Assembly: GCF_056746865.1 (NCBI RefSeq) | Contig: NZ_CM163382.1 | Reading direction: 5' to 3' (one strand) | Length of the DNA: 64,000 nt | Shown here: positions 175 through 45,073 of the stretch, piece by piece | Layout of the letters: each line of letters starts with the position of its first letter | How positions within the stretch are numbered: the first letter of the stretch is position 1 | The notes under the pieces: model-generated | What the model was told of the DNA's origin: nothing | The model's database searches: none | What the model saw: only the letters and a program-made list of their open reading frames with translations | Made by a program: the position numbers and the translations under genes

Positions 175-459
175 ATGCCTTTAGCAGCCAAACTCACCGA
201 CAAAGGCACCCAGCACGACGGTTATTACGAGACCGTCATCACCGCCGGGTCATCCACCGTCTTTATCGATGGTCTTCCCGCAGCCCGTCAGGGAGATCCG
301 CTGACGCCGCATGCTAAACCGAAGCATCCCCCTCATCCCCGTAAAATCGCCAGAGGTTCTTCAACCGTCTTTATTGACGGCCTGCCCGCCGCCAGAAGCG
401 GTGATGCTGTTGACTGCGGCGGCGTGGTTATTGGTGGCGGTACGGTAAATATAGGCTGA
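175..459 (+). CDS. PAAR-domain protein (T6SS spike-sharpening protein), 94 aa
   Basis: Translation contains two GLPAAR(Q/S)GD motifs and a glycine-rich tail; GGAGG RBS 8 nt upstream of ATG; lies 18 nt upstream of vgrG. Confidence 0.75.
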   Translation: MPLAAKLTDKGTQHDGYYETVITAGSSTVFIDGLPAARQGDPLTPHAKPKHPPHPRKIARGSSTVFIDGLPAARSGDAVDCGGVVIGGGTVNIG

Positions 460-477
460 TATGTCTGAGAGGTATTT

Positions 478-2883: not shown

Positions 2884-3664
2884 TAATCAAACTTCTGGAC
2901 AACCAAAGCCAGAGCCAGAAGAATGTGTGAAAGAGCAAAAAATAACTGATCATTTTAAAATAATGATTGATAAGGCTCGTAAGGCACAAAAGTTGGTTTT
3001 GATAAAAAGAGCAGATGATCTTTTGAGATGGGGAGCACAGGAGGAATATGATTTCAGTAAGATCTTTGGTGTTAAAGGAAATAAGGAGGTTAATATAAGA
3101 AAATATGGACATAATACAGGTAGGCGCATGAATGCTAGATTTCTTATGATGGATGGTGTGAGAAGATTAATGATTATAGCTAATGATTTAACAATGAGCA
3201 GTTTTATAAATTATACAGGTTGTAATGAATTTGCAGCATTCGTCAGCCCAAGTAAGGATATGCCCTATATAATTAACATAGGCGCAAAATTTGAGTATAG
3301 AGATGGCAAAAAAAATCCAGTAACGGGAAAGGATTCTCATGTTGCTACTTTATGTCATGAAATGTCTCATATTCAGTGGTATTATGGGGATAATAAAAAA
3401 GGTGGTATGTGGTCACAGGATTATACAACTACTGATAAATATTCAACGTGCAAAGAGGATGAAGTTTCATATGACGAACATATCCGTATTGCAACTAAAC
3501 TGATCTCTAAACAAAAAGATCAAATATTCGAGAATGCATATAACATAGAAAGATATTTTGAAATAAGATTAATTGAAAGTGAGATAGACTCGATTAATGA
3601 TGAAATATTAAGCAATTCAGTTAAGAAAAAAATAGCGGAATTAGAAAAAGCACTTCTCCATTAA
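2873..3664 (+). CDS. Putative HExxH zinc-metallopeptidase-like protein; candidate VgrG-associated cargo effector
   Basis: ORF overlapping the vgrG stop (ATG at 2873, alternative ATG at 2837); motif ATLCHEMSHIQW (HExxH); abrupt drop to AT-rich composition; no confident family assignment. Confidence 0.5.
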   Translation: MDDNNQTSGQPKPEPEECVKEQKITDHFKIMIDKARKAQKLVLIKRADDLLRWGAQEEYDFSKIFGVKGNKEVNIRKYGHNTGRRMNARFLMMDGVRRLMIIANDLTMSSFINYTGCNEFAAFVSPSKDMPYIINIGAKFEYRDGKKNPVTGKDSHVATLCHEMSHIQWYYGDNKKGGMWSQDYTTTDKYSTCKEDEVSYDEHIRIATKLISKQKDQIFENAYNIERYFEIRLIESEIDSINDEILSNSVKKKIAELEKALLH

Positions 3665-3716
3665 CTAATAAGTCGAGAAATATATTAATGCTGCAAGCTA
3701 TAAAAAAATCATAATA

Positions 3717-4346
3717 ATGACAATCGTAAATATTATATTTTTCTATTCCTTTCAATCGACTGCGGATGAAATGGTTTTAATAAAAAAATACGGGTTTGGG
3801 CTTGAGAGAGATATCAAAGGAAGGCCATTAATTTATCCTATCGAAAATTATGATGAGTGTAAGAAAAAATGCAATCATATGAATTATATAGCGGATGTCA
3901 ATGCTCAATTAGCTATGAGTAAAAAAAACAACAGGATTTTTGCTAACATAACCTTTACTAACAATAGCTCTACCACGTATTTTTTTTCTAAATATTACCT
4001 ACCTATGAAAGTAAAAGATGGAAAAGGAGATGAATATGATGCGATATGCAAAAAACCATTCAGAATCAACTCTGGGAATATCACGTTGGACTACTTAGGT
4101 GGTTCATGTCCTTTTGAAATTAATACGAATCCTGAACGGTGGAATACTATTAAACCAGGTCGTAGTTTTTTGTTGAGTATAACCTTAAATGATATGTATG
4201 CCTTTATACCAGGAGATAATTATTATTTTATAAAATCATCTGGCTATAAATTTGTTAATGACAAGTGGTTTACACTCAAATCAATCAATAATATTTTTCT
4301 TTATTTTTTAAATTTAAAAATTAATTGTGCTGATGATTTTTTTTGA
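3717..4346 (+). CDS. Hypothetical protein, AT-rich; candidate immunity/accessory protein of the vgrG cargo
   Basis: 209-aa ORF immediately downstream of the HExxH gene, same strand; no recognisable motif; start codon uncertain. Confidence 0.35.
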   Translation: MTIVNIIFFYSFQSTADEMVLIKKYGFGLERDIKGRPLIYPIENYDECKKKCNHMNYIADVNAQLAMSKKNNRIFANITFTNNSSTTYFFSKYYLPMKVKDGKGDEYDAICKKPFRINSGNITLDYLGGSCPFEINTNPERWNTIKPGRSFLLSITLNDMYAFIPGDNYYFIKSSGYKFVNDKWFTLKSINNIFLYFLNLKINCADDFF

Positions 4347-4528
4347 TATTAATAATTTTACTACATGTGATAATTTGTTATTAGATGAAAAAAAATACTT
4401 TTTTATTAATCAGTTATGGGCAATTGAGGATGAAAAAAATTCTATTTACGTCACCCCTGATGAAATTTCTATAAGTATAGACGGCGATAACTTAAAGTTG
4501 CCATATTAGGAATCTGTGAAAGAACAAG

Positions 4529-5017
4529 GTGCGCCGCTTTTTTGTACTAAATAATTCGCATTTTAGTCACGGCAGAGAAGAAATCCATCTTCATATTGTT
4601 TGCGATGTCCCTGATGAACTTATTGATTTCACGTTTGAATGGAAAGGTCAGAAGAAATTATGCGTGGCAGTCTCCTTTTGGTCAATAATAGCAGAACAAA
4701 AGAAAGAGCCAGAAATGACGGTCAGATATTATATCAGTTCTGCTGATTTAACCGCAAAAAAGTTCGCCACAGCGATACGAAATCACTGGCACGTGGAGAA
4801 TAAGCTGCACTGGCGTCTGGACGTGGTAATGAACGAAGACGACTGCAAAATAAGAAGAGGAAACGCCGCAGAATTATTTTCAGGGATACGGCACATCGCT
4901 ATTAATATTTTAACGAATGATAAGGTATTCAAGGCAGGGTTAAGACGCAAGATGCGAAAAGCAGCTATGGACAGAGACTACCTCGCGTCAGTCCTTGCGG
5001 GGAGCGGGCTTTCGTAA
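4529..5017 (+). pseudogene. H-repeat (ISAs1-family) transposase, C-terminal fragment
   Basis: Translation ...[63 protein letters not shown]...[20 protein letters not shown] matches the C-terminal half of Rhs-associated H-rpt proteins (YhhI/YdcC-like); N-terminal half is absent. Confidence 0.75.
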
Positions 5018-5125
5018 TCTTGCCCTGGCGATCGAATAGCGCAGATGACGGTGCTCTAAATTTGAATCTAATAAGCCGGTGTTATTTTTCATCCACTATT
5101 AAAATCTTGACACAACGAGGCAACA

Positions 5126-5686
5126 ATGAAAAAAAGCAAAAAAATTAAAACAATGAACCATCAAAATAATAGCGGGATACAAAATCAACCAGACTATCAC
5201 ATCGAAATAGAAAGAAAAAATATGGTAAGATTGCTTGATGAACGTATTGATAAAGTTTACGGTTCATTGCTAGGACCAATGAAAAAGAAAAATATAGATA
5301 AAATACGTCATTTTACACTTGATGTAATGGTGTTTATTCTTGACACGAACCCTCGTGTTTGTAATAAATTATCCAGGGAAATAATATCTTTAGCGCAAAA
5401 TACCTTCATTGAAAAAAACGTTAATTTTTCAACTTTTAATAATGAACAGCATAGAATAAGGGAGTATATGAATGAAGGTGGTGGAATACGATGGTTTACA
5501 TGGGATAACCCCGAGATATCTTTTGTTCGTGCATCTTTTGGCCTTTTTGTCAAAATGGAAACAAAAGGTGATCATGAACATACACTAAGTGACACATTTC
5601 TTCAGATTGTTGAGTGTGTTAATTTAAATATAGGACTTATTGCAAAAGATGAACTGGTAAAAATCATCAATAAACACTTTATGTAA
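5126..5686 (+). CDS. Hypothetical protein (186 aa), AT-rich island ORF
   Basis: Clean ORF with A-rich upstream region; no recognisable domain; located in the low-GC region downstream of vgrG. Confidence 0.35.
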   Translation: MKKSKKIKTMNHQNNSGIQNQPDYHIEIERKNMVRLLDERIDKVYGSLLGPMKKKNIDKIRHFTLDVMVFILDTNPRVCNKLSREIISLAQNTFIEKNVNFSTFNNEQHRIREYMNEGGGIRWFTWDNPEISFVRASFGLFVKMETKGDHEHTLSDTFLQIVECVNLNIGLIAKDELVKIINKHFM

Positions 5687-6045
5687 AAATATACTTCTGT
5701 ATGAAGTTATAATAATACAGTGAAAATCATCAAATTATTAATTAATGATGCTCTTTGTTATTATTTACTTTTTACAATTGAATCAGGGGTTTTATTTTCT
5801 GTAGTAAAGTTGTATTTTTGCTAAAGGTGATAAAGTACAGGTGTTTATATTAAATTAGAACTCCCCTTAATTATCATAAATACAAAGAGGTGAAAACATG
5901 CGGGGGTGTTTTCGTTAAATAATACCATGGTGAATTAATAACATGCTATCAGTGATATACATATTTTCTCTAACAAAGTTTTAGTAAAATTACGCGTAGT
6001 AAGAAGATTCCGCCAAAGATTCCATATAATAATATTAAGGTTGTT

Positions 6046-6681
6046 ATGAATAAAGGTAATAGATTACAACAGTTAGAAGATGCGTGTCGTGATATTATTA
6101 AAATTAACATGTGGTATGAACTCCCCGATTATGTATTTTTTTCAATATCTGACACCATCGATGGGACGAGTGATGAATTCGCAATAAATGTGTATAAAAA
6201 TATCGATAAAAGTCTTCTTGAAATATTATTGCATCCATCTGTTTTACTGTCAGTTGTTGAGTCCTTACAAAGTAATACTATAGCTGAGTATATCGTGAAA
6301 TTGTCTGAAATAGAGATGAATTATGACGACTTGCTAATATCGGATGTTAAATCATGTCTTTTTATCAACTATGGATTCAATAACAGTGAATCGGTTGCGC
6401 TATTTAATAAGATTTACCGCGAATTAAAAGATATTGTAAAATCATCAAGAGTACATATAGATCATGAGAAAGATATTTTTGATGGCCTTAATCAAATCTT
6501 GGCTTTTTCCGATAATAATAAACATGAGTATTTTTTATATATAAAGGCATATTGGCTCAGTTTATACTTTTGTGAAATTTCACAGAACGTGAGAGAAAGA
6601 GATAAGTTGTCATTTTATTATAATGAATTTTCTGTCCGATTTCCTAATGTTGTCCTATATCCGTCATGCTACAAATTGTAA
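6046..6681 (+). CDS. Hypothetical protein (211 aa), AT-rich island ORF
   Basis: Clean ORF in the low-GC region; no recognisable domain. Confidence 0.35.
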   Translation: MNKGNRLQQLEDACRDIIKINMWYELPDYVFFSISDTIDGTSDEFAINVYKNIDKSLLEILLHPSVLLSVVESLQSNTIAEYIVKLSEIEMNYDDLLISDVKSCLFINYGFNNSESVALFNKIYRELKDIVKSSRVHIDHEKDIFDGLNQILAFSDNNKHEYFLYIKAYWLSLYFCEISQNVRERDKLSFYYNEFSVRFPNVVLYPSCYKL

Positions 6682-7073
6682 GGCTTGGCACCTGAAATTC
6701 ATTGTTAATTCGAGACGCTTGATTGTCCACTATATCAAAACAGTCATACCTCGGAATTTTCTCGCATTAGTCCATACGGTATTCAATATTCGCAACTGTG
6801 CCCTGAAATAAAAAACTGCAAAACTGCTTTTTCTTGACCTGTCCCAATCACGCAAGACTACTTTTAGTAGAGACCTCCAGCTATGTCGATTTTAGTGCCG
6901 CCCGCGCATTTTATACAAAACAGGGCTTTATTAATGAAGCTATAATACGCAATTACTATGATGTTGGTGAGGATAAATTAATCTTCACTAAAAATATGCA
7001 ATCGTGAGATAAAATATGCTTTTAACTCATATTGAAACATTGCTTAAGCAACTTGGTTGCTGCATATGATTCT

Positions 7074-8734: not shown

Positions 8735-9265
8735 GTGCAGTTTATGAAACATTCATTTGAAGTAAAACTTGCCGCTGTAAATCATTACCTGGCTGGTCAT
8801 GCAGGCATCATTTCTACGGTAAAACTCTTTCAACTTTCTCACACCAGCCTCTCACACTGGATTAATCTTTTTCTTCTTCACGGTCCTCGGGCACTGGATT
8901 GCAGACACAAGCGTAGCTATTCTCCTGAAGATAAACTTTGCGTGGTTCTTTATGCTCTCGGGCATTCTGAGTCTCTACCCCGGGTAGCTGCCCGGTTTAA
9001 CATTCCCAGCCACAACACGGTTAAAAACTGGATAAAAGGCTACCGCAAATCTGGTAATGAGGCCTTTATCAGGCGCAGGAAGGAGAAAAGCATGACCCGT
9101 TCTGATGATACCCATGAAAACGAGGCAAACATGACGCCGGAAGAGATGAAGAATGAGCTGCGTTATCTTCGCGCAGAAAATGCATATCTGAAAGCCATGC
9201 AGGAGCATCTCCTGGAAAAAAAGCGCCAGGAGCTGGAGAAAAAACGAAAGTCATCCGGAGCCTGA
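8735..9265 (+). CDS. IS3-family transposase OrfA (HTH DNA-binding and leucine-zipper part)
   Basis: 176 aa; HTH region followed by heptad leucine repeat (NELRYLRAENAYLKAMQEHLLEKKRQELEKKRK); ends just after an A6 run. Confidence 0.8.
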   Translation: MQFMKHSFEVKLAAVNHYLAGHAGIISTVKLFQLSHTSLSHWINLFLLHGPRALDCRHKRSYSPEDKLCVVLYALGHSESLPRVAARFNIPSHNTVKNWIKGYRKSGNEAFIRRRKEKSMTRSDDTHENEANMTPEEMKNELRYLRAENAYLKAMQEHLLEKKRQELEKKRKSSGA

Positions 9266-9369
9266 GGTGCGGACACTGCCAGTCTGACCTGTTAAAGGCT
9301 GCAGGGCTGGCCAGAAGCACGCTGTACTACCAGCTGTCACTGCAGAAGGCTAAGGACAAGTATGCTGAT

Positions 9370-10124
<755 letters not shown>

Positions 10125-19289: not shown

Positions 19290-19600
19290 ATTGTTCCTCA
19301 CATGTACACATTGGTAATGAAAAAAAGACAAAACAGGAGGTAAGGCGCAATAGCCAGTTATTAGAATTAAGGATGAATTAGGTGAAGTGCTGATTGAAAG
19401 AATAGATAAGAAAGCGTAACCGCGGGGGCAGAATGGGGATTAAACAGACAGATATGTGTTACTAAATGTAACTAACAAGCTAACCATTAAACGGATGTTA
19501 AGCTATGTATGCATGTCATGATCCAACCCTTCAGATGATGAATCCAAAGGGTTTATATTTTCAACAAGACCAGACACTTATAGAATTAGTGATGATTTAT

Positions 19601-20896
19601 TCACTGAAAAGGCCATGAGCTGGAGGAAAACGATCTGTCCAGAAAGTCTATCGGTTCCTCTCTTATCGCCTCATTGTAATAATCGTTATTACAGTAAGTA
19701 TTGTTTATTTCATCTAATGTCATATTTTTAATTTTTATATTCATCTGATTTACAACTTCTTCTGTTTTATAAGTGTGTATATTATATGGGGTATATGCTT
19801 CTTTAATAGTATAGTGAAACAATTCGTTATCCACATCTACTCCTTCAGAGTGAATTTCAAATGCACCAGGCGAAAGAATTGCCAGGCCAGTATTAAGCTT
19901 AAGTGCTGGGGAAAATAAATTAAATAACATGAGCTGCATAGTAGGGCAATTGTTCTTCCCAGAAACATTTAAAAAATTTAAGTTTTTGCTCTGTTTTATT
20001 ATGGGGAATAAAGTTCCAATATCGGACGTATTCTTAGTGTCAATGCGGGTTATTTTATTATTGTCCAGCCTTAAACTTTTGATAGATGAAAGATAAGTCA
20101 GGAAATGAAGGTTTATTTTTTCCAACTGATTGTTCGCAGCGTTTAATGTCTGAATATTGCAGAAGTTGCTAAAGAATATTTTAATTTCAGAAAGCAAGTT
20201 GTTGTTGATAAGTAACGTATTCAAGTTGGGAAATAAGGTATTATGTAAACTTGTTAGTTTATTATGGGATAGATCCAGAAGTAAGAGTTCATCTTTATTT
20301 CCTGCAACAATATCAGTTAATTGATTGTGGCTGAGATTCAGGTACTGCAGCCTTTCGCAACATTCTAATTGCACAAACTCTAGTTGATTATGTGCCGCAC
20401 TAAAATAAGTAATTGATGAAAGCCTATCTATATCAATATTTCTGAGAGAATTATTATTCATAGATATATGTGTAATGCTTACATTTCTACCTTGAGGAAA
20501 ATTTATTGACTCAAGAGCATTACTATTCAGACTAAGGTTGATGAGTCTATCGTAGGTGGTTGCATCAAAATGTTTGAGTTGGTTCTCATCAAGATTGATA
20601 GAGGTGAAGTTTTGCAGTCCTGGTGGTTGAGTAGTTAAATTAAGCCCTGATAAATCAATATTATTCTGTTTCGACAAAAAAGCACAATTTATCCTTTTAG
20701 CGGCTTCGTTTCGGCATTCCGGACGATGGATTTCACCTGTAAGTATGCGTTCTGCTTTCCATTGATTTAATTCGAGCATCCAGTTAAGTTCATTTTTTTC
20801 TGGATGTTGCTGTATGGATTGTGGATTTATTTTATTAAATATTGAAGGGAATTTCATAACTGCTCCGTAGTAATACTTTCTTTTCTGATTTATCAC
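19601..20896 (-). CDS. Leucine-rich repeat protein, IpaH/YopM-like (LPX-type LRR), no NEL E3-ligase domain; yddK-like
   Basis: 431 aa; N-terminal cap W...W...GE...R.EAAKRINCAF...IDLSGLNLTTQPP followed by about 20-residue LRRs (LxxLxLxxNxLxxI); AT-rich. Confidence 0.7.
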   Translation of the reverse strand: MINQKRKYYYGAVMKFPSIFNKINPQSIQQHPEKNELNWMLELNQWKAERILTGEIHRPECRNEAAKRINCAFLSKQNNIDLSGLNLTTQPPGLQNFTSINLDENQLKHFDATTYDRLINLSLNSNALESINFPQGRNVSITHISMNNNSLRNIDIDRLSSITYFSAAHNQLEFVQLECCERLQYLNLSHNQLTDIVAGNKDELLLLDLSHNKLTSLHNTLFPNLNTLLINNNLLSEIKIFFSNFCNIQTLNAANNQLEKINLHFLTYLSSIKSLRLDNNKITRIDTKNTSDIGTLFPIIKQSKNLNFLNVSGKNNCPTMQLMLFNLFSPALKLNTGLAILSPGAFEIHSEGVDVDNELFHYTIKEAYTPYNIHTYKTEEVVNQMNIKIKNMTLDEINNTYCNNDYYNEAIREEPIDFLDRSFSSSSWPFQ

Positions 20897-20918
20897 CCTT
20901 GATAAATCAGGATGTGTT

Positions 20919-34619: not shown

Positions 34620-34665
34620 TGCCGGATGACGCGTCAGGCGCGTGATTGCCTGATGCGTTGTTAGC
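34620..34665. repeat. REP-like palindrome / probable bidirectional terminator between convergent osmC and ddpF
   Basis: gccggatgacgcgtcaggcgcgtgattgcctgatgcgt forms an imperfect hairpin with REP-type GCCTGATGCG motif. Confidence 0.4.
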
Positions 34666-34669
34666 GTCT

Positions 34670-35596
34670 CTACAGCGCCCGCCAGCACCGGATCTCACGT
34701 CCGTCCTCCCTTATTGTTAATGATTGCCGGACTTCACATCCGTGGGTTGCCAGAGGGCAGCGTTCGCGGAAAAAACAGCCTTGTGGCAACGTGCGGTTTC
34801 CTGGTAGATCCGTTTTACGTAATGCCCATTCTTCCTCCAGCGGTTTATCAATGGCGGGGAGGGAATCCAGCAATAATCGGGTGTATGGATGTGCCGGAGC
34901 TGTCAGCACCTGTTGCGCGTCTCCTAGTTCCACAATCTGTCCGAGATACATCACCGCCACCCGATCGCTCATATGACGTATCACCGAGACATTGTGTGAA
35001 ATCAGCACATAAGTCAGCCCGCGATTTTCCTGTAGCGTTACCAGTAAATTGAGGATCTGCGCCTGCACGGAGATATCCAGCGCCGAGGTTGGTTCATCAA
35101 GCACAATCACGTCAGGCTGCGAAGAGAGTGCTCTGGCAATGGCGATACGTTGCCGCTGCCCGCCTGAGAACGCATGAGGCAAGCGATCGAGATACTCCGG
35201 ACGAATACCCACCTGCACAGCCAGCTCCTCTGCCAACGCTCGCCGCTGTTGTTCACTACTACGCTTAGCTATCCAGAGCGGTTCTGTGATGATGCGCCAC
35301 ACCGGTAAGCGCGGATTGAGCGAAGAGAGCGGGTCCTGAAACACCATCTGCATAATGCGTTGTGATCTTGAACGGATGTACTGCCCGTGGCTCGGTTGCA
35401 GCATACCCATTAAAAGCTGTGCGAGGGTGCTTTTGCCGCAGCCTGACTCACCGACGATCCCTAAGGTTTCACTACGACGGATCTGTAAATCAATACCATT
35501 GATGGCATGAACATGTTCCGTAGTTTTACCAAGCCAGTTTTTTCGGGCCGGGAAATTGATATGGACGTCGCGTAACGTTAATAACGTGTCAGACAC
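34670..35596 (-). CDS. ddpF: D,D-dipeptide ABC transporter ATP-binding protein
   Basis: Walker A GESGCGKST, ABC signature LSGGQRQR; 308 aa if started at GTG 35596 (ORF-track extension to 35650 rejected). Confidence 0.8.
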   Translation of the reverse strand: MSDTLLTLRDVHINFPARKNWLGKTTEHVHAINGIDLQIRRSETLGIVGESGCGKSTLAQLLMGMLQPSHGQYIRSRSQRIMQMVFQDPLSSLNPRLPVWRIITEPLWIAKRSSEQQRRALAEELAVQVGIRPEYLDRLPHAFSGGQRQRIAIARALSSQPDVIVLDEPTSALDISVQAQILNLLVTLQENRGLTYVLISHNVSVIRHMSDRVAVMYLGQIVELGDAQQVLTAPAHPYTRLLLDSLPAIDKPLEEEWALRKTDLPGNRTLPQGCFFRERCPLATHGCEVRQSLTIREDGREIRCWRAL

Positions 35597-36575
35597 TAAT
35601 GACCTCCTGCTGAGGATACCAACAGGCGCAGCGGTGGTTGTTGTCACCATACGCTGTTAGCGCCGGGACGTTTTCACACTGTGCACCTGCCGCATAGCAA
35701 CGATCGCGAAAAGCGCAGCCGTCAGGCAAATGGGTGAGGTTTGGTACCGTCCCCGGAATAGCGGGTAATGGCTGGCGCGGTATTCCATGTTCCGGTGCGC
35801 ATTGCAGCAAACCAATGGTATACGGATGCCGGGGATGATGGATAACGTCTGCCGTCACGCCGCTCTCAATCACGCTTCCGGCATACATCACGTAAACGCT
35901 ATCGCACAGTTGCGACACCACGGCCATATCATGGCTGATGAACAGTACCGCAGTTCCACTGGCGCGGGCTTTATGTTTAAGCAGACGCAGTACCTGCAAC
36001 TGTACCGTGACGTCCAGCGCCGTAGTCGGTTCGTCGGCAATAATCAATTGCGGCTCGCAGGAGAATGCCAGCGCAATCATTACCCGCTGTCGCATACCAC
36101 CTGAAAGCTCAAACGGATAGCGCGACATAACTTCCACGGCATCCGGGATTTGCATCTCTTCCAGCAGGGCAATCGCTTTAGCTCTGGCTTCCCGACGACT
36201 TTTTGGTTGATGATGGCGGATCACGTCCATCATCTGAAGACCTATTCGACGTGTCGGATTAAGGGCGGTCATCGGTTCCTGAAAGATCATCGCCACTCGT
36301 GCGCCGCGCCACTGACGAAGCTGTTTTTCCCGAGCGTTAAGAGCATCTTCTCCCAGCAGTGAAATATGTCCCCGATGTACGCAATAACTGCCCGTCGGTA
36401 ACAGACGCATAATCAACATTGCAGTGACTGATTTACCCGAGCCGGATTCTCCCACCAGACCGACAATTTCACCGCGGTTGATTTTCAATGACACATTGTT
36501 GAGCGCGTGAACATCACCGTTAAAACCGGGGAAACTCAAATGCAGTTGTTGAATGTCCAGAACGGGTTGGGTCAT
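35589..36575 (-). CDS. ddpD: D,D-dipeptide ABC transporter ATP-binding protein
   Basis: 328 aa; Walker A GESGSGKS, LSGGMRQR signature. Confidence 0.85.
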   Translation of the reverse strand: MTQPVLDIQQLHLSFPGFNGDVHALNNVSLKINRGEIVGLVGESGSGKSVTAMLIMRLLPTGSYCVHRGHISLLGEDALNAREKQLRQWRGARVAMIFQEPMTALNPTRRIGLQMMDVIRHHQPKSRREARAKAIALLEEMQIPDAVEVMSRYPFELSGGMRQRVMIALAFSCEPQLIIADEPTTALDVTVQLQVLRLLKHKARASGTAVLFISHDMAVVSQLCDSVYVMYAGSVIESGVTADVIHHPRHPYTIGLLQCAPEHGIPRQPLPAIPGTVPNLTHLPDGCAFRDRCYAAGAQCENVPALTAYGDNNHRCACWYPQQEVISV

Positions 36576-37468
36576 GACTGCTTTCCTCCTGCTTTCGGGT
36601 CAAGCAGATCGCGAATACCATCACCAAAGAGATTAAACCCGACGGCGGTAAGCAAAATCGCTGCCCCCGGAAATGCGCAATACCACCATTGATCGAGCAC
36701 ATAGTTGCGACCATTCGCCACCATCGCCCCCCATTCAGCACTTGGTTGTTGAGCACCCAGGCCAATAAATCCCAACGTGGCGGCCATTAAAATCGCGCTA
36801 CCGATATCCAGCGATGCCTGCACAATCAGCGGCGGCAGGGAGTTACGTAAAATATGCCAGTTGATCAGATGCCAACGCGACGCACCAAAGGTTTTCGCCG
36901 CCTGAACATAGGTATACTGGCGAACAACTAATGTTTGCCCCCGCGCCAGGCGCACATAAAAGGGAATTCGCACAATAGCAATCGCCAGCATGGCGTTAAA
37001 CAAACTCGGCCCGAGAGCGGCTGCCAGTGCCATTGTCAGCACCAGCGAAGGAATCGACAGCATAATGTCCATGATGCGCATGATAATCGCGTCTGCGCGT
37101 CCGCCAAGCACACCGGATAGACACCCGAGTAGCGACCCCATCATACCTGCAATGGCGACCACCACTAATCCGGCGAGAATTGATTGCTGACTGCCGACCA
37201 GTACGCGGCTAAACAGATCGCGTCCCACTTCATCGGTGCCAAACCAGTGCGCCGCAGAAGGCGGCAAAAGGCGGGCGGTTAAATCAATGGCGTTGGGATC
37301 ATGCGTCGCCAGCCACGGTGAAAAAATCATCATCAGTAGCATTAATACAATGATGACTGCGCCGGTCACGGTAAGCGGGCTGCCTTTCAGCATCCATACC
37401 AGTTTTGCACCGTTAAATCGCGTTTGTTTTGGTGGGCGCACGGCTGACGTTTCCTCGCTTAGCATCAT
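36572..37468 (-). CDS. ddpC: D,D-dipeptide ABC transporter permease
   Basis: 298 aa DppC/OppC-type permease; overlapping stop/start with neighbours. Confidence 0.85.
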   Translation of the reverse strand: MMLSEETSAVRPPKQTRFNGAKLVWMLKGSPLTVTGAVIIVLMLLMMIFSPWLATHDPNAIDLTARLLPPSAAHWFGTDEVGRDLFSRVLVGSQQSILAGLVVVAIAGMMGSLLGCLSGVLGGRADAIIMRIMDIMLSIPSLVLTMALAAALGPSLFNAMLAIAIVRIPFYVRLARGQTLVVRQYTYVQAAKTFGASRWHLINWHILRNSLPPLIVQASLDIGSAILMAATLGFIGLGAQQPSAEWGAMVANGRNYVLDQWWYCAFPGAAILLTAVGFNLFGDGIRDLLDPKAGGKQS

Positions 37469-38487
37469 TCACCACCTCCACGTCCGATACGCGGATCAAT
37501 CCACAAATAGAGCAAATCCACCACCAGGTTGACCAGCACATAAGCAAACGAAACCACGACGGCAAATCCCATCACCGCAGGGAAGTCGAGCGCCTGTATT
37601 GATGTCACTACCCATGCCCCCATTCCGGGCCAGGCAAAAACGGTTTCGGTGAGCACTGCGCCATACAACAAATCGCCCAGCGCCAGACCCAATACGGTAA
37701 TCGAAGGGATCAACGCATTGGGTAGCGCATAACATAAAACGATATACCAGCCGGGCAAGCCGCTGGCCCGGGCGGTACGAATGTAATCTTCACTCAATTG
37801 TTCCAGCATAGCTGAGCGGATCTGGCGAGCGACAATTCCCAGGTGAACGAACGCCAGCGTTAATGCCGGTAAGATGAGATGTTGCAGCGCATTGAAGAAG
37901 ACTTCACCGTTGCCTTCAAGCAGCGCATCGAGCAGATAAAAGCCGGTAACGTGCGTTGGTGGATCCAGCCAGTCATCAAGCCTTCCGCCGCCGGGAAGAA
38001 TTTGCAGATGACCATAAAACAGCACAATGACGCCCAGCCCAAGCCAGAACGCAGGTGTGGAGATTCCGGTAATGGCCATTATTCGCACCAGATGATCCAG
38101 CCAGCGATTTCGCCAGACTGCAGAGAGTATGCCCAGCGGGATGCCAATCAGGAGTGCCAGCAGCAGGGCACAAAAAGCCAGTTCCAGCGTCGCCGGGAAA
38201 AATATACGCAACTCTTCCAGCACCGGACGCCCGGTACGAATGGATGTTCCCAGGTCACCCTGAAACAGGTCGCTGACGTAGCGGTAAAACTGTACGTACA
38301 GTGGCTGGTCCAGTCCCAGTTGCTGGCGAATATTATCCACGATAGCATCGCTGGCGCGGTCACCCGCCAGTAACCGCGCCGGATCGCCGGGGATCAGGTG
38401 CGAGATAATAAACGTTATCACACAGACGCCCGCCACCACGAGCACCAGCCCCCAGCAGCGTTGGCGTAAAATACTCCAGAAGGTCAC
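37465..38487 (-). CDS. ddpB: D,D-dipeptide ABC transporter permease
   Basis: 340 aa DppB/OppB-type permease. Confidence 0.85.
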   Translation of the reverse strand: MTFWSILRQRCWGLVLVVAGVCVITFIISHLIPGDPARLLAGDRASDAIVDNIRQQLGLDQPLYVQFYRYVSDLFQGDLGTSIRTGRPVLEELRIFFPATLELAFCALLLALLIGIPLGILSAVWRNRWLDHLVRIMAITGISTPAFWLGLGVIVLFYGHLQILPGGGRLDDWLDPPTHVTGFYLLDALLEGNGEVFFNALQHLILPALTLAFVHLGIVARQIRSAMLEQLSEDYIRTARASGLPGWYIVLCYALPNALIPSITVLGLALGDLLYGAVLTETVFAWPGMGAWVVTSIQALDFPAVMGFAVVVSFAYVLVNLVVDLLYLWIDPRIGRGGGE

Positions 38488-38488
38488 G

Positions 38489-40039
38489 TTATTTACTCAT
38501 GGTATTGATATTGAAGACCTGTTCCAGCATGGGATTGAACACAAAACCTTTCACCTCTTTGTTCATCGCCAGTTGGTAGTTTTTCTGGAACAGGTACACA
38601 TAAGCAGCGTCATCAATGACGATTTTCTGTGCCTGCTGGTAGTCCCGAGTACGCTGCGTCTGGTCGGTGGTCGCTAGCGCATTGCGCAGTAACTTATCGA
38701 CCTCACTGTTTTCATAGAACGAGCGGTTACCCGGCAGACCTTTTTTGTCTGACTCAAACCAGTAATTCATAAACATATACGGGTCGGCAAAATCCGGACT
38801 CCAGTTGCCAATCGCAATGTCATAATCACCTTTTCCCACTCTGTCGCGCATGGTGGCGTTCGCCAGCTTTTCCAGCTTCACGTTGATGCCCAGCTTGTTG
38901 AGACTGGATTGTGTCGCCAGAGCAATAGGCTCCCAGTTCGGATCATTATCAGAATAGAGAAACGTCAGGCTGGTGGGTTTGCTCGTCACTTTATCCCATT
39001 CGGCTTTGGCTTTCGTTTCGTCATGGTTGTATTGCATTGCCGTCGCATCGTATCCCCACATGCCTTCCGGAATCGGGCCGCGCATTTGTTTTCCGTTACC
39101 ACTCAGAATGCCGTTAACCATACCCTGATAATCGGTAGACCAGGAAATGGCCCGACGCAGATCCGCCTGATTAAGTGGCGCTTTGCTGTTATTCAGATAC
39201 AGATAGGTGACGCGCAGTGACGGATACTCTGCCACATTGACTTTGTTTTCCTGCTTCAGTGCGTTGAGTTGATCCACCGGCAGCGCATCGGCAATGTCAA
39301 TGTCGCCACGGGAGAGCTGCAGGCGACGGGAAGCACTTTCACCGATAATTTTTACCGATACCCGTTTGAAATTCGGTTTATTGCCGGGGTAATGCGGATT
39401 TGGCACCAGAACTAATTGCTGACCTTTTTGCCAGCTTTTCAGCATAAACGGTCCGGAGCCAGCGGTATTTTGCGCGAGGAAACCACGGGCATCATCCGCC
39501 GCATGCTCCTTTAAGACCGCCGGATTGATAATGGATGCACCGTCATTCGCCAGCGTGTAGAGGAACGGTGCGAATGGCTGGCTAAGGGTAAACCTCACTG
39601 TATGTTCGTCGGGAGCATCAATCTTTAAATCTTTGGGAAATGCTTCTGCTGGCCCCTGGCCGATTTTTAGTAACCGCTCAAAAGAGAGTTTTACTGCTTC
39701 GGCAGTGACAGGAGTGCCATCGGCAAATTTAGCATTATCCTTCAGGGTGAATGTCCACTCTTTTTGATCGTCAGACGCTTTCCAGCTACTCGCCAGATCG
39801 CCTTCAACGTCGGTTGAGCCTTTATCACCGTCCGTTTTGTACTGAACCAGTCGCTGATAAGACGGGTAGGTCACTGTCCAGTCGTTATTATCAATTGTCA
39901 CCGCTGGGTCGAGGGTTTGTGGGTCGGCAGCTTTACCGATCACCAGCATATCTTTCGGTACGGCGGCGTGCGCAACCGGCATTGTTGTGGCAAGGACGAT
40001 CGCGAGCAATGTAGGACGAAACGAAATCGATCTCTTCAT
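38489..40039 (-). CDS. ddpA: D,D-dipeptide periplasmic binding protein
   Basis: Translation from MKRSISFRPTLLAIVLATTMPVAHAA (signal peptide) gives 516 aa; family 5 SBP. Confidence 0.85.
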   Translation of the reverse strand: MKRSISFRPTLLAIVLATTMPVAHAAVPKDMLVIGKAADPQTLDPAVTIDNNDWTVTYPSYQRLVQYKTDGDKGSTDVEGDLASSWKASDDQKEWTFTLKDNAKFADGTPVTAEAVKLSFERLLKIGQGPAEAFPKDLKIDAPDEHTVRFTLSQPFAPFLYTLANDGASIINPAVLKEHAADDARGFLAQNTAGSGPFMLKSWQKGQQLVLVPNPHYPGNKPNFKRVSVKIIGESASRRLQLSRGDIDIADALPVDQLNALKQENKVNVAEYPSLRVTYLYLNNSKAPLNQADLRRAISWSTDYQGMVNGILSGNGKQMRGPIPEGMWGYDATAMQYNHDETKAKAEWDKVTSKPTSLTFLYSDNDPNWEPIALATQSSLNKLGINVKLEKLANATMRDRVGKGDYDIAIGNWSPDFADPYMFMNYWFESDKKGLPGNRSFYENSEVDKLLRNALATTDQTQRTRDYQQAQKIVIDDAAYVYLFQKNYQLAMNKEVKGFVFNPMLEQVFNINTMSK

Positions 40040-40052
40040 GACAGTTTCCTGA

Positions 40053-40634
40053 TTAACTGGCGTGCTGTGTGCCAGGGGATATAAAACAGGTGAATTGATC
40101 AGCGAGTAGTGGGTAACTCGCTGCCTGGGGTAATTCGAAGTGCCACCATTCGCTCGGGATACCGACAAAGCCACCGCCAGTCATAATCGCATTCAGCAAC
40201 AGCCGATTGCGCTGAGCGGCGGGCGGGACGGAAGGGTGATAAGCATGGGAACGTTCGTGCATTTCATCAAACTCTGCACCCATATCCAGTATGTTCCCGT
40301 GCTCATCACGAAGCGTCAGGTCGATCGCCGTGCCACGGCTGTGATTAGAACCGACCGTCACATCAACAACATATTGCGGGTCTGGGCAGGCTTGCCACAA
40401 CATCGCCTGTGCTTGTTGTGGGCGATACGCATCGTAAATCACCAGTTGTAAGCCTGACAGCTGGGCGATACTGATACTTTTCGCCAGCGCGGTAATCGCA
40501 TCCTTGTGTAACAGACAACGCGCTTGCTGATAAATAGCTTTACCTGTGATGTTATCAGCGCAGGCGTATTTCAATTCGATCTCCAGATCAGGGAAGATCA
40601 CGGCTAAATCAACCAGTTCGGTGGTATCTGACAT
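40053..40634 (-). CDS. ddpX: D-alanyl-D-alanine dipeptidase (VanX homolog)
   Basis: 193 aa; VanX-type Zn motifs SNHSRGTAIDLTL and EWWHFE. Confidence 0.9.
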   Translation of the reverse strand: MSDTTELVDLAVIFPDLEIELKYACADNITGKAIYQQARCLLHKDAITALAKSISIAQLSGLQLVIYDAYRPQQAQAMLWQACPDPQYVVDVTVGSNHSRGTAIDLTLRDEHGNILDMGAEFDEMHERSHAYHPSVPPAAQRNRLLLNAIMTGGGFVGIPSEWWHFELPQAASYPLLADQFTCFISPGTQHAS

Positions 40635-40891
40635 AAACGGTTCCTGTATAAGACAAAAATTGCTGCGCTTTCCGCTTATGCAGATCTCATGCCACGCCGG
40701 GATAAGCGCCAGAATGTTGGCTTAAAGTTATATTTTTTAACTTTTGATCAACATTTGTGCAGCGTAGTGCAGTTTTGGTGCAAGAGGGGAAGTTAAGGAA
40801 GGAATCTCCCGGAATCGTAGCTGAAATCACAGTATTTAAGTGACAGTGTCACGTTAAATGAAAACCCGCGAGTGCGGGCGGGAGAAAATTG

Positions 40892-43291
40892 TCAGATTTT
40901 CAGCGGTAACACGCTGCTAATCCAGCCAGGAATTTCTTCGGCGGGTAGGGGGCGGGAAAAGAAATATCCCTGAATAACGCGACAGTGAATCTTGCGTAGC
41001 ATCTCAAATTGTTCTTTGGTTTCGACGCCTTCTGCCACGACGGTTAAATTGAGGCTTTGCCCAATGCTGGTAATGGCTTCAAGTAAGGCTCGGATGCGTT
41101 TTTCGGTCAGACAACGATCGACAAAGCTTTTGTCAATTTTGATTTCCGTTACCGGAAGACTGACTAAGCGGGATAAACCAGAAAAACCCGTGCCGAAATC
41201 ATCGACAGATAAACCTACGCCCATATCGCGCAGGATCTGAATGCGCTTAAAGATTTCGGTATCGTGTTCCATCATCATGCTTTCCGTGATTTCCACCGTC
41301 AGCTGGTGGCCGTCAATACCCCAGGCTTGCATTGCATCAGACACCTGATTAGGCAGCTGATTACTGCGAAAGTGCAACGCCGACAAGTTAACGGATAACG
41401 CCGGGATATGAATATTCTGGCTACGCCATTCTGCTAACTGACGACAAGCTTCCGCGATGACCCAGCGTCCAATATTTTCGATTTCACCGATCTCTTCTGC
41501 GAGAGGAATAAACCGTGAAGGGGGCACATGACCATGCAGGGGATCGTGCCAGCGAGCAAGGGCTTCGATGCCGTAGAGCTCACCCGTTTCTGCGAAGATT
41601 TGCGGCTGGTAAACCAGTTTTAGTTGGTTATTGCTAATCGCTTCTTTCAGCGCCGCGCCTAAAACCAAACGCTCTTTTACCATTTCGTTCATCGCCGGGC
41701 TGAAGAACTGCCAGCCGTTACCGCCATTCTTGCGAATATAATCCATTGCATTGTGAGCAGTGGAGAGCAGGTAATCGCGGTTTTTACCCACGTCGTAGCT
41801 GATGCCAATGCTCAAGGTGAGCGGGAATGGTTTATCGTCAATCATTATCGGCTTGCTGACCACATTCCGTAGCTCATCGGCGATTTGGGTTATGTTACTG
41901 ACGTCGTTTTCCAGGCTCACGAGGACAAACTGCGTACCTTCGATACGACAGAGATACTGATCCGGTTTGAGTTTTTCACGAAAGCGATTGACCACTTCCA
42001 GCAATGCCTGATCGGCCCACGCATAGCCAAGGCTATCAATCACATCCTGAATATGGTCAACACCGATGAGATACACCACCGGAGAGACGGCTTTGTCGAC
42101 CAGGTCATCGAGGTAATTGTGCAGGTTATTGCGATTTGGCAGACCGGTCATCGGATCAAATTGGATGAGTTGTTCAATATGCTGACGGCTTTTTTCCTGT
42201 TCCAGCGCCAGCGCGGCCATATGCTGGCTGATATCTGCCACGCGTTCGATAAAGGCGCTGGTTTCTGCTCCTGACGAGGTTTTAATTTGCAGGATCCCCG
42301 CAGGCGCACCATCACGCTGACGAATGGTCGCTGACCAGCTTTGCGCATTTTGAACTTCTGCACCGTGCGAAGATGACGCCCAGTGTAGCGGCATCCCGTT
42401 GCGCAGCGCGAACAGCGAAACATGCGATTCGTTGAGTACAGATTCGATGTTACGACAAATAATTTCCCCCATTTCATGAAATGGCGGGCTGCTGCACATG
42501 GCGGCGAGAATATTGCCTTCAAGCTGGCGGATTTGCCGTTCTTCGGTGATATCCGAGAAAGTCATTACCAGGTTCTGCAGATGCGCGAGCACATCATAGA
42601 CCGGGCTGATAGAGGCTTTAATCCAGATTTTTTCACCGGTGCGCGTCAACAGCAGAAATTCGTCCTGATCGCGGGCGGTTTTCCATAGCAACTGTTGTAA
42701 ACGAATGCGGTTATCAGCAGGGAATTCTGGAATGTTCAGGAGTGTATCGGGCTGCATACCGCTGGCTTCGCTAATGCAGTAACCAAACATTTCGGTAAAT
42801 GCACGATTGCACTGCACAATATGGCGTTCCGGATCGAGGACAATCACTGGTCGGTCGAGATGGTCAACGGCAATAATCAATTGTCGGGTCTGTTCTTTTT
42901 GCGCCATTTCTACGCTGGCATCCCGTACCAGCGCCAGGTAATAAACTTTCCCCTCGGCGCTCACTTTCGATAGCGCAAAACGGGTCCAGATTTTACTGCC
43001 GTCTTTTTTCTCCAGCTGCAGCTCCCGACTCATCCCCTCGACGCGCGCTTTACCGCCTTCACGGTTGTGACGGATGTATTCAGGATGCGCGGGACGCAAA
43101 TCCCGCGGAATCAGCATATCAATGTTATTGCCAATAACTTCTTCACGTTTGTACCCCCAGAGCTTCTCTGCGGCGGGGTTGAAAAACATCACTTCATCAT
43201 TTTCGTTAATTAACACCGCGCCCATCATATTTTGCTCAAGGGCGGGGAAAAAAATGCCATCGGCGGCATTATCCGCATCGGTTAGCTTCAT
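40892..43291 (-). CDS. dosP: Heme/oxygen-sensing c-di-GMP phosphodiesterase (PAS-PAS-GGDEF-EAL)
   Basis: Translation from MKLTDADNAADGIFFPALEQN... gives 799 aa; EAL domain motifs (EAL-R, DDFGTG) at C-terminus. Confidence 0.9.
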   Translation of the reverse strand: MKLTDADNAADGIFFPALEQNMMGAVLINENDEVMFFNPAAEKLWGYKREEVIGNNIDMLIPRDLRPAHPEYIRHNREGGKARVEGMSRELQLEKKDGSKIWTRFALSKVSAEGKVYYLALVRDASVEMAQKEQTRQLIIAVDHLDRPVIVLDPERHIVQCNRAFTEMFGYCISEASGMQPDTLLNIPEFPADNRIRLQQLLWKTARDQDEFLLLTRTGEKIWIKASISPVYDVLAHLQNLVMTFSDITEERQIRQLEGNILAAMCSSPPFHEMGEIICRNIESVLNESHVSLFALRNGMPLHWASSSHGAEVQNAQSWSATIRQRDGAPAGILQIKTSSGAETSAFIERVADISQHMAALALEQEKSRQHIEQLIQFDPMTGLPNRNNLHNYLDDLVDKAVSPVVYLIGVDHIQDVIDSLGYAWADQALLEVVNRFREKLKPDQYLCRIEGTQFVLVSLENDVSNITQIADELRNVVSKPIMIDDKPFPLTLSIGISYDVGKNRDYLLSTAHNAMDYIRKNGGNGWQFFSPAMNEMVKERLVLGAALKEAISNNQLKLVYQPQIFAETGELYGIEALARWHDPLHGHVPPSRFIPLAEEIGEIENIGRWVIAEACRQLAEWRSQNIHIPALSVNLSALHFRSNQLPNQVSDAMQAWGIDGHQLTVEITESMMMEHDTEIFKRIQILRDMGVGLSVDDFGTGFSGLSRLVSLPVTEIKIDKSFVDRCLTEKRIRALLEAITSIGQSLNLTVVAEGVETKEQFEMLRKIHCRVIQGYFFSRPLPAEEIPGWISSVLPLKI

Positions 43292-43315
43292 GATTACCTC
43301 TGCATCCTGGCGCAT

Positions 43316-44698
43316 CTAAAGACTGGCTTTCCAGAGTTCAACACGGTTTCTACCTCGTCTTTTGGCGATATACAGAGCTTCATCGGCTATTTGAATGAGG
43401 CGCTCATAGTCAGGATGACCATTAAACATGGCGGCACCGATGGAAAGTGAGAGGGCAATATCTTCGCCGTTTGCGGCTTTCAGTTTGGTTTTCTCCACCC
43501 GACTGCGAATACGTTCTGCGGTACGTAACGTTTCGTTTTCCGAAGCTTCAGTCAAAACAATGATAAATTCATCGCCCCCGTAGCGGAAAACATAATCACT
43601 ACTGCGGACGTTGTCATAAAAGGCCTGAGAGATTTTACGCAGAATTTCATCGCCAGTGTTATGACCCCACGTATCGTTAATCTCTTTGAATTTATCAACG
43701 TCAATAATCAGCACTGACAGCGGTGTACCGGTCCGGTTGGCATGGGCAATTTCGCGTTTGAAGATCGTCGGCAGGAAACGGCGGTTAAGTAATTTCGTCA
43801 GTACATCCATACCGACTTCGTGGCGCGATACTTCTTCAAACAATTCACGCAGCAAGGTAATAATTTGCGATACGGTATTTCTTATCTGTAATAAAAATTT
43901 TACCCGTAAACTTCTGTTATTCAAATTCCTGGTGTTACGCATGGTTTGATTGAAAATACCGTCGAAATCCTGAATCAGACGGGAGATATGGCCCACTTCG
44001 GCTATGCCGCTAAAATAATGTCGACCTTTATGGTTAAACCACAGGCCAAAATCAGCCTGGCTTAAAGGCAAACTACTGCCTAAATCAGAATCCAGCAGGA
44101 CTTTATAGATAATATCTATTTCCCATGAAAGTAATGAGGCTATTTGCCGCTCTTTTTCTTCTTCGGCATTTTCCAGTAACGAGAAGATACGATAGTTTTC
44201 ATCTTCCTTTGAGGCACTACTGTCACTAAAGGTAAACGCGCGGGTCATCACTTCCATAGCGATATCAATACTGTTAATAGAGAAATGGTAGACCTGAAGT
44301 TTTTCTGCGGCGGAATAATCCGAAGAGAAGATGACTGGATAGAGGATTTTTTTCAGCACCCGAAACCCCATCTCGACAATTTCTACCGGAATTCCTATGC
44401 GGGCATGCACTTCCGCGACGGTATGCTGGATTTGTATTAGCCTTTCGACATCGTCAACCTGGGCAGAAAGCACGTTAATAATCCAGCGTTCCATCGCACT
44501 TTTCAACTGCCGCTCAACTTGTTCATTACTCAAGAATTCTTCGGCATGCGGGTCGATACGGACAATTCGGTAAAACTCAATACTCAGATAATGGGCATGC
44601 GCAACGGCAATTTCCGCGGCTTTAGCACGAATGAGCGGATCTGCTTGTTCGACAAGCCCGGTCCACTCATCTTTCATTCTTTTAAAATACATCTCCAT
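43316..44698 (-). CDS. dosC: Globin-coupled diguanylate cyclase
   Basis: 460 aa; N-terminal sensor globin, C-terminal GGDEF (RYGGDEF). Confidence 0.9.
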   Translation of the reverse strand: MEMYFKRMKDEWTGLVEQADPLIRAKAAEIAVAHAHYLSIEFYRIVRIDPHAEEFLSNEQVERQLKSAMERWIINVLSAQVDDVERLIQIQHTVAEVHARIGIPVEIVEMGFRVLKKILYPVIFSSDYSAAEKLQVYHFSINSIDIAMEVMTRAFTFSDSSASKEDENYRIFSLLENAEEEKERQIASLLSWEIDIIYKVLLDSDLGSSLPLSQADFGLWFNHKGRHYFSGIAEVGHISRLIQDFDGIFNQTMRNTRNLNNRSLRVKFLLQIRNTVSQIITLLRELFEEVSRHEVGMDVLTKLLNRRFLPTIFKREIAHANRTGTPLSVLIIDVDKFKEINDTWGHNTGDEILRKISQAFYDNVRSSDYVFRYGGDEFIIVLTEASENETLRTAERIRSRVEKTKLKAANGEDIALSLSIGAAMFNGHPDYERLIQIADEALYIAKRRGRNRVELWKASL

Positions 44699-45073
44699 AA
44701 TTCACACCCTTATAAGGCTGGGAAAGCAGACGGAATCAAAACGAAACGCAACGTGCGAGGTCGACTAACTGCACCATATTCTCCTGAAATATGAAGATAT
44801 ACTGAAAACAAATAAGCGACTTAGGACAGTTTCAATCTACGCTACTGTTCTTCAGAAGAGTATAGCCCATCGTAATTATTTTTCGGTGACAGCGAATATC
44901 GTATGTTTTTTCATATTCATACATTTTTACTAGGGGATTTATGACTGTTTAACTAAGTGTGGTTAATTGCGTAGTTAATTTGACTTAAGTAAGCATGATT
45001 ACTAGTGGGATATTTCAAGAGGGTAACAAGCCGGGGGGAAAGCACCGGCTTGTTACAAAGTAAGAATGGGAGT

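Follow-up and report, generated by a model that had tools for sequence, protein, structure and literature searches.

The segment from 40892 to 44698 of the 64,000-nucleotide stretch of DNA analysed here (hereafter the window) is almost certainly the intact dosCP operon of Escherichia coli (yddV-dos, dgcO-pdeO), a module that is already known as the textbook heme-based O2-sensing c-di-GMP pair with solved structures. It consists of two adjoining minus-strand open reading frames (ORFs), whose outer limits in the ORF list for the window fall exactly on these two positions (Table 1). A 100% identical copy of the 3807-bp stretch, with its genes annotated as dosP and dosC, is present in 20 or more complete genomes of E. 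coli. The discovery value of this locus is small, and a complete dosCP is ordinary. No sequence evidence was found that contradicts its reading as a dosCP operon.

Table 1. Coordinates of genes, domains and regulatory candidates at the dosCP locus (window numbering)
Feature	Position	Strand	Details and evidence
dosC (yddV/dgcO) CDS	43316..44698	-	460 aa + TAG stop; ORF, Pfam, RefSeq annotation of 100%-identical record
DosC sensor-globin domain (aa 26-155)	44234..44623	-	Pfam PF11563 (Protoglobin), 41.8 bits vs cutoff 25
DosC middle domain (aa 180-289)	43832..44161	-	Pfam PF21118 DosC_2nd, E=1.1e-49
DosC GGDEF catalytic domain (aa 297-452)	43343..43810	-	Pfam PF00990, E=6.9e-51
dosC-dosP spacer	43292..43315	-	24 nt; ribosome-binding site AGAGGT at 43296-43301
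dosP (yddU/dos/pdeO) CDS	40892..43291	-	799 aa + TGA stop; NCBIfam NF008467, RefSeq annotation
DosP heme-binding PAS (aa 33-132, 807-aa numbering)	42920..43219	-	Pfam PAS_9/PAS; PDB 1v9y, 1s66
DosP second PAS (aa 150-261, 807-aa numbering)	42533..42868	-	Pfam PAS_4, E=1.6e-13
DosP degenerate GGDEF (aa 386-533, 807-aa numbering)	41717..42160	-	Pfam PF00990, E=6.4e-22, 78.5 bits
DosP EAL domain (aa 555-789, 807-aa numbering)	40949..41653	-	Pfam PF00563, E=5.6e-71; PDB 4hu3
Candidate sigma-S-type extended -10 (C-TATACT, CTATACT)	44859..44865	-	161-167 nt upstream of dosC ATG; alignment
Terminator-like hairpin GCCCGC-ACTC-GCGGGT, then TTTTCATTT	40856..40882	-	~10 nt after dosP stop; scan, fold

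The K-12 strain that served as our reference (a single strain, whose DosP is UniProt P76129 according to PMC11543664) carries the same two genes, with the same lengths (460 and 799 amino acids), domain order and key residues, an identical 24-nt spacer sequence, and the same flanking genes and orientation. Neither ORF in the window is interrupted by a frameshift or a premature stop, which upholds the description of the module as intact in an initial annotation made from the DNA sequence. That annotation also proposed the module as an anchor for synteny comparisons, and the gene order ddpX-dosP-dosC-digH-gadC indeed agrees with that of K-12. The value of dosCP is a practical one, namely that it can be relied on to anchor synteny across the ddp-dosCP-digH-gadBC region.

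Pfam searches recover all of the domain types originally named (globin, GGDEF, PAS and EAL), such that the designations of DosC as a globin-coupled diguanylate cyclase and of DosP as a heme-PAS phosphodiesterase both hold. The picture is refined by a middle domain in DosC, as well as a second PAS domain and a degenerate GGDEF domain in DosP. The DosC middle domain covers the whole DosC_2nd profile (167.6 bits, cutoff 31). In the sensor globin, the distal residues Tyr43 and Gln60 and the proximal residue His98 are present, and all three are also conserved in Citrobacter. The GGDEF motif is intact at residues 374 to 378, and an RSSD sequence corresponding to the RxxD inhibition-site motif occupies residues 365 to 368. 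Structures of DosC domains in the PDB (4zva, 4zvb, 4zvc and 4zve) match with E values of 1e-77 to 1e-103, where the sensor globin corresponds to 4zva (E=3e-100) and 4zvb (E=9e-95). Because DosC is 99% identical to its characterised K-12 counterpart, it is predicted to bind heme and to possess O2-dependent cyclase activity.

Against the NCBIfam equivalog model NF008467 (‘oxygen-sensing cyclic-di-GMP phosphodiesterase DosP’; cutoff 857 bits), DosP scores 1643.1 bits in a full-length alignment (DosP residues 1-799 on profile positions 1-800). The axial ligands His77 and Met95 of the heme-PAS domain, along with Arg97, are present and are conserved across Escherichia and Citrobacter (807-aa numbering, as for the EAL residues that follow). 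The GGDEF domain located between the PAS and EAL domains appears to be degenerate (non-catalytic), as evident by the sequence EGTQF in place of GGDEF. By contrast, the catalytic and metal-binding residues of the EAL domain are present (E584-A-L, N643, E675, D705-D706, K726, E762 and Q782). The PDB entries for full-length DosP, 9bgv and 9cdr, align with scores of approximately 1800 bits, and the solved K-12 structures of both DosC and DosP match end to end.

The sequence itself shows the gene structure, the domains and key residues, a near-identical match to the characterised K-12 proteins, the synteny and the conserved junction; the binding of heme, the activities of the two enzymes, their co-transcription and the assigned promoter and terminator are drawn from the literature or inferred. 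In the proposed mechanism, the GGDEF domain of DosC would make c-di-GMP from GTP under the control of the heme in its N-terminal sensor globin, and DosP would act as an EAL c-di-GMP phosphodiesterase that is turned on by O2 binding to its N-terminal PAS heme. Between them, the two proteins would thereby act as source and sink of c-di-GMP, tuned by O2. For YddV, the O2-bound form is said, from work in the Shimizu laboratory by Kitanishi et al. in 2010, to be active. Reports of different laboratories differ on the O2 effect on DosC, the unliganded protein having also been described as the active form (PMC11543664). The activation of DosP by O2, the association of both proteins with the degradosome, and the organization of dosCP as an operon under RpoS control are described in the literature (PMC11543664, PMC5635695, PMC12360218), and the pair is reported to act locally on a PNPase-containing RNA-degradosome complex.

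Relatives outside E. coli retain the same arrangement. The neighbouring, co-oriented pair recurs in three further Escherichia genomes and in three of Citrobacter, with 24 to 27 nt between dosC and dosP and a conserved Shine-Dalgarno sequence. The Citrobacter pairs (C. sedlakii, C. amalonaticus and Citrobacter sp.; spacers of 26 to 27 nt) conserve all checked heme and catalytic residues at amino acid identities of approximately 83% for DosC and 76% for DosP. They differ from the locus examined here in that dosC ends with TGA rather than TAG, no upstream in-frame ATG is present, DosP comprises 801 amino acids, and the hairpin following dosP is of another form. More distantly, the PDE-A1-type phosphodiesterases of Komagataeibacter xylinus exhibit only about 30 to 43% identity to DosP, and no DosC-like globin cyclase was found upstream in these loci, where a tblastn search with DosC matched GGDEF domains only. 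These proteins do have the FFNPAAEKLWGY heme-PAS signature and the PAS-GGDEF-EAL layout in common with DosP, and PDE-A1 is an O2-regulated phosphodiesterase (PMC11543664).

The junction between the two genes calls for a choice of dosP start codon. The initial annotation gave a gap of 24 nt, which is correct for two genes on the same strand if dosP begins at the ATG annotated by RefSeq (43289-43291), counted from the dosC stop codon TAG at 43316-43318. A different start codon would change this gap, however, because the spacer opens with another in-frame ATG (43313-43315) that directly abuts the dosC TAG, and the longest dosP ORF, which encodes 807 amino acids and begins at 43315, leaves a gap of 0 nt. 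Translation of DosP from this abutting ATG, with translational coupling to dosC, is the strongest of the alternatives to the preferred reading, but we consider it unlikely. In its favor, the TAG-ATG arrangement is kept in all four Escherichia lineages examined, and the 807-aa form is the one employed in biochemical and structural work, where the eight extra residues MRQDAEVI are included in the constructs for 9bgv and 9cdr (PMC11543664). Against it, the upstream ATG is absent from all three orthologous Citrobacter loci, in two of which dosC and dosP even lie in different frames. In addition, a Shine-Dalgarno sequence (AGAGGT or AGGGGT) located 5 nt upstream of the MKL or MNL start is conserved in both Escherichia and Citrobacter, whereas inspection of the spacer sequence reveals no comparable element before the upstream ATG. 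The 799-aa start is the one annotated by RefSeq and used by UniProt P76129, with the eight additional residues referred to as ‘historical numbering’ (PMC11543664). This cross-genus comparison of the junction provides one small clarification, in that it identifies the MKL start of the 799-aa protein, rather than the ‘historical’ 807-aa start, as the evolutionarily conserved site predicted for dosP initiation. Translation of dosP would then proceed from its own ribosome-binding site in the spacer.

The in-frame TAG-ATG sequence was also considered as a conserved signal for read-through or coupling, and was rejected on the basis of its presence in four Escherichia lineages and absence from three Citrobacter loci (two of them out of frame). 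That it is not conserved beyond Escherichia speaks for an incidental arrangement. Suppression of amber codons does occur, for example in supE laboratory strains. Read-through or suppression of the TAG codon could in principle generate a DosC-DosP fusion of 1268 amino acids, and re-initiation at the abutting ATG could generate a minor 807-aa DosP isoform; either product, if real, would couple the cyclase and the phosphodiesterase, which reportedly function as a complex, physically or stoichiometrically, although we give such products almost no chance.

Expression of dosC and dosP from a single dosCP operon under RpoS control has been described for K-12 (PMC11543664, PMC5635695), and the layout in the window is that of an operon: both genes lie on the same strand, the short spacer carries its own ribosome-binding site, no terminator intervenes, and a hairpin follows the distal gene. 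We expect that the genes are co-transcribed from a promoter upstream of dosC in an RpoS-dependent manner in stationary phase. A scan for sigma-70 sites revealed none upstream of dosC. A candidate sigma-S-type -10 element was spotted there by eye and by phylogenetic footprinting, and it resides within a conserved block, ATGGGCTATACTYTTCAGAAG, shared by Escherichia and Citrobacter (present at two of the three Citrobacter loci, the available C. sedlakii locus being too short to show it). From this conservation, we infer that the CTATACT block may be the promoter of dosC. Transcription probably stops at the hairpin just past dosP, which matches the consensus for such elements and which, with its T-run, is also predicted by folding in K-12 and ST131; this hairpin is the probable end of the operon. 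A second terminator-like hairpin with a run of seven T nucleotides, at positions 43253-43270 of the minus strand in the 5′ end of dosP, was assessed for a role as an attenuator. The hairpin is weak (approximately -11 kcal/mol), its T-run encodes the conserved GIFFP sequence, and Citrobacter does not conserve the structure; it is therefore not considered to be a feature.

Separate transcription of the adjoining genes, with dosP expressed from a promoter inside dosC, is very improbable. Three minus-strand sigma-70-like hexamer pairs do occur within dosC, but the total of four promoter-like sites found by the scan is fewer than expected by chance (7.2 +/- 2.8 in shuffled sequences). The 24-nt spacer, in which the scan detected no terminator-like site, likewise argues against independent transcription units, as do the published descriptions of a single operon cited above. 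Furthermore, in ST131 the deletion of 43481-44739 has nevertheless left the region upstream of 44740, including the -10 block, beside an intact dosP.

The allele differs from that of the K-12 strain at 91 positions over 3807 bp (97.6% nucleotide identity), which amount to four amino acid changes in DosC (P22L, I189L, I200V and V356I) and six in DosP (I302L, I313V, L501V, H655Q, L734R and M791I; 799-aa numbering). Upstream of dosC, the window carries 12 nt more than K-12 in the form of a second AATTAACYACGC unit. That the module merely appears intact while such substitutions, for example L734R in DosP or P22L in DosC, impair its function is barely credible. The EAL-domain change L734R (L742R when numbered on the 807-aa form) is non-conservative and, in a comparison of five E. 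coli DosP sequences, occurs in this allele alone. E. coli genomes have also commonly lost dosC or dosP or carry decayed copies, both in the literature (PMC5635171) and in the genome comparisons reported here. However, none of the ten substitutions affects a checked heme-ligand or catalytic residue, all of which are intact. Position 734 is Gln in Citrobacter, which indicates that a polar residue is tolerated at this site, and at position 22 of DosC a different Escherichia species has Leu, and Citrobacter has His. Moreover, the sharing of this exact allele among the complete genomes noted above is unlike recent decay.

The statement that dosCP is intact is meaningful because only 4254 of 5426 genomes (78%) retain 80% or more of the stretch at a single location, whereas matches of some kind are found in 5407 of them. 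By this measure, roughly one in five of the sequenced E. coli genomes has lost part of dosCP. In an ST131 genome, nearly all of dosC is gone together with the ddp operon (ddpXABCDF) and dosP is intact; in an O157:H7 genome, dosP is frameshifted. Strain names, considered together with published work (PMC5635171), suggest that the ST131 deletion may be shared by the wider B2 group. The presence of both an intact dosCP and the ddp operon helps to place the strain relative to these genomes, and argues that it belongs neither to ST131 nor to that O157:H7 lineage. Among the genomes with an identical dosCP is E. coli 2017C-4173W12 (NZ_CP030768.1; DosP WP_001513298.1, DosC WP_000426278.1), which matches the whole 64-kb window with 99.987% identity and differs from it by seven substitutions and one homopolymer indel, all located outside dosCP.

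The span 40892-44698, which the initial annotation assigned to an intact dosCP module, is filled exactly by two neighboring minus-strand open reading frames. Pfam searches recovered all four of its proposed domain types (globin, GGDEF, PAS and EAL), with GGDEF and EAL motifs present: DosC was hit by Protoglobin (aa 26-155), by PF21118, the middle domain specific to DosC (E=1.1e-49), and by GGDEF (E=6.9e-51), and DosP shows two PAS stretches together with GGDEF (E=6.4e-22) and EAL (E=5.6e-71) domains. With a score of 1643 bits, DosP also clears the 857-bit cutoff of the NCBIfam equivalog 'oxygen-sensing cyclic-di-GMP phosphodiesterase DosP'. Essentially end-to-end matches were obtained with E. 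coli DosC domain structures (4zva, 4zvb, 4zvc and 4zve) and with full-length (9bgv, 9cdr), EAL (4hu3) and heme-PAS (1v9y, 1s66) structures of DosP. These matches, together with the key residues described below, bear out the identities of a globin-coupled cyclase and a heme-PAS phosphodiesterase. The initial annotation is correct in both observation and interpretation, and what it describes is a known, ordinary feature. Our analysis makes only two small additions, namely cross-genus support for the 799-aa DosP start and a population context for the term 'intact'.

Coordinates of dosCP genes and candidate regulatory elements
Feature	Position	Strand	Description
dosC ORF	43316-44698	-	460 aa; TAG stop at 43316-43318
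dosP ORF, longest form	40892-43315	-	807 aa, counted from first ATG
dosP ORF, RefSeq start	ATG 43289-43291	-	799 aa
C-TATACT	44859-44865		candidate sigma-S-type extended -10, inside ATGGGCTATACTYTTCAGAAG block
Hairpin	~45020-45053		10-bp stem, just past digH

The 24-nt gap reported between the genes (43292-43315) is reproduced under the RefSeq start, and its size hinges on the start codon chosen because the ATG of the longer ORF directly abuts the dosC stop codon in the same frame. At 43313-43318 (minus strand), the TAG thus runs straight into the in-frame ATG of the 807-aa form, and therefore dosC and dosP constitute a single reading frame broken by one amber codon. Orthologs were retrieved with a degenerate DNA pattern built for the heme-PAS peptide FFNPAAEKLWGY, which yielded dosC-dosP pairs from another three lineages of Escherichia and from three species of Citrobacter, the latter with ~83% DosC and ~76% DosP identity. 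The in-frame TAG-ATG is common to all Escherichia loci compared (four lineages), whereas Citrobacter dosC ends in TGA followed by a 26-27 nt spacer, the upstream dosP ATG is absent from all three Citrobacter loci, and the two genes are out of frame in two of them. All of these loci keep an MKL/MNL start, as well as an AGAGGT/AGGGGT Shine-Dalgarno sequence located 5 nt before it. Therefore, this junction comparison supports the 799-aa start and, with it, a spacer of 24 nt, in agreement with PMC11543664, which treats the eight residues MRQDAEVI as a historical addition to the UniProt P76129 sequence.

No terminator-like site was found in the dosC-dosP spacer. About 10 nt past the dosP stop codon lies the start of a GC-rich hairpin with TTTTCATTT after it, and this hairpin is shared by K-12 and ST131. 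The block ATGGGCTATACTYTTCAGAAG, which lies upstream of dosC amid otherwise diverged sequence, is conserved in both Escherichia and Citrobacter, and the C-TATACT within it is a putative dosC promoter element. The genes have been described as one RpoS-controlled operon induced in stationary phase (PMC11543664, PMC5635695). The hairpin just past digH suggests that this gene is a separate transcription unit. A terminator-like hairpin ~20 nt inside dosP (43253-43270, minus strand; AATGCC-GCCG-ATGGCATT, then T7) is probably incidental, as it is weak, is not conserved in Citrobacter, and has a T-run that codes for conserved residues. The digH-dosC intergenic region (~44945-44975, minus strand) exhibits a small indel polymorphism, with the 12-nt unit AATTAACYACGC present as two tandem copies in the window, O157, ST131 and TOE51, and as one copy in K-12.

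Relative to a K-12-derived genome, the dosCP stretch has 91 nucleotide differences (97.6% identity) and unchanged length. DosC differs by P22L, I189L, I200V and V356I, and DosP (799-aa numbering) by I302L, I313V, L501V, H655Q, L734R and M791I. Only L734R is non-conservative, and this change is probably neutral, judging from the Gln that occupies the site in Citrobacter. None of the substitutions affects a checked residue. These comprise DosC Tyr43, Gln60, His98, the GGDEF motif (374-378) and RSSD (365-368), and, in 807-aa numbering, DosP heme-PAS residues His77, Met95 and Arg97 and EAL-domain residues E584, N643, E675, D705, D706, K726, E762 and Q782. All are also kept by the Citrobacter orthologs. 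The degenerate GGDEF domain of DosP (EGTQF) is the same in K-12.

From the literature and our own inference, the EAL phosphodiesterase of DosP, which converts c-di-GMP to pGpG, would be switched on when O2 binds the heme-PAS domain. DosC (Kd for O2 ~20 uM) synthesizes c-di-GMP. Reports disagree on the active ligation state of DosC. One proposal is that the two proteins serve as a local rheostat acting on a PNPase-containing degradosome complex (PMC11543664, PMC5635695, PMC12360218).

The description 'intact' holds, in that both ORFs match their K-12 lengths and every checked residue is present. Complete E. coli genomes that are 100% identical over the 3807-bp stretch, which they annotate as dosP and dosC, number at least 20, and E. 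coli 2017C-4173W12 is 99.987% identical over the whole 64-kb window. The stretch is matched in 5407 of 5426 genomes. Intactness is modestly informative, because only 4254 of the 5426 carry at least 80% of it in one place, leaving ~21% of complete E. coli that do not. An ST131 genome lacks 43481-44739, which removes dosC save its last 54 codons, and also 34659-40812 (the ddpFDCBAX region). These deletions spare a 44-nt island, and the genome retains dosP and the putative promoter region upstream of dosC. The reverse pattern, decay of dosP only, is observed with O157:H7 F8798 (L007, 601-2990; annotated frameshifted, 10 nt shorter than here) and O78 strain 3 (L008, 601-2999; annotated with a 1-nt frameshift, 1 nt shorter), both with intact dosC. 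In strain N25, dosP is gone along with most of dosC. PMC5635171, citing Povolotsky & Hengge 2016, already reports that isolates often lack DosC.

The module also serves as the proposed synteny anchor, since the order ddpFDCBAX-dosP-dosC-digH-gadC-gadB-pqqL is that of K-12 over the part compared. Elsewhere in the window, a cluster adjoining yddH (~175-6700) encodes type VI secretion PAAR, VgrG (TssI) and peptidase M35 proteins, and also contains hypothetical genes and a fragment of an ISAs1 transposase; this cluster is not known to belong to the corresponding K-12 arrangement. A hypothetical gene downstream of the vgrG and peptidase M35 genes has, near its 5′ end (~3702-3708), a homopolymer that is A7 here and A8 in NZ_CP030768.1, a difference that would shift the annotated frame of the gene or may be a sequencing error. 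The near-identical record annotates an IS1397 element (IS3 family; transposase with a programmed frameshift) as inserted between nhoA and yddE (~8745-10093). Between narU and yddG (~19600-23450), where we take K-12 to hold only remnants (yddK/yddL), are genes for a leucine-rich-repeat protein and a full-length OmpC-like porin. Finally, fdnI and adhP flank a pair of genes (~29640-30200) for a HigA-family antitoxin (yddM) and a RelE/ParE-family toxin.
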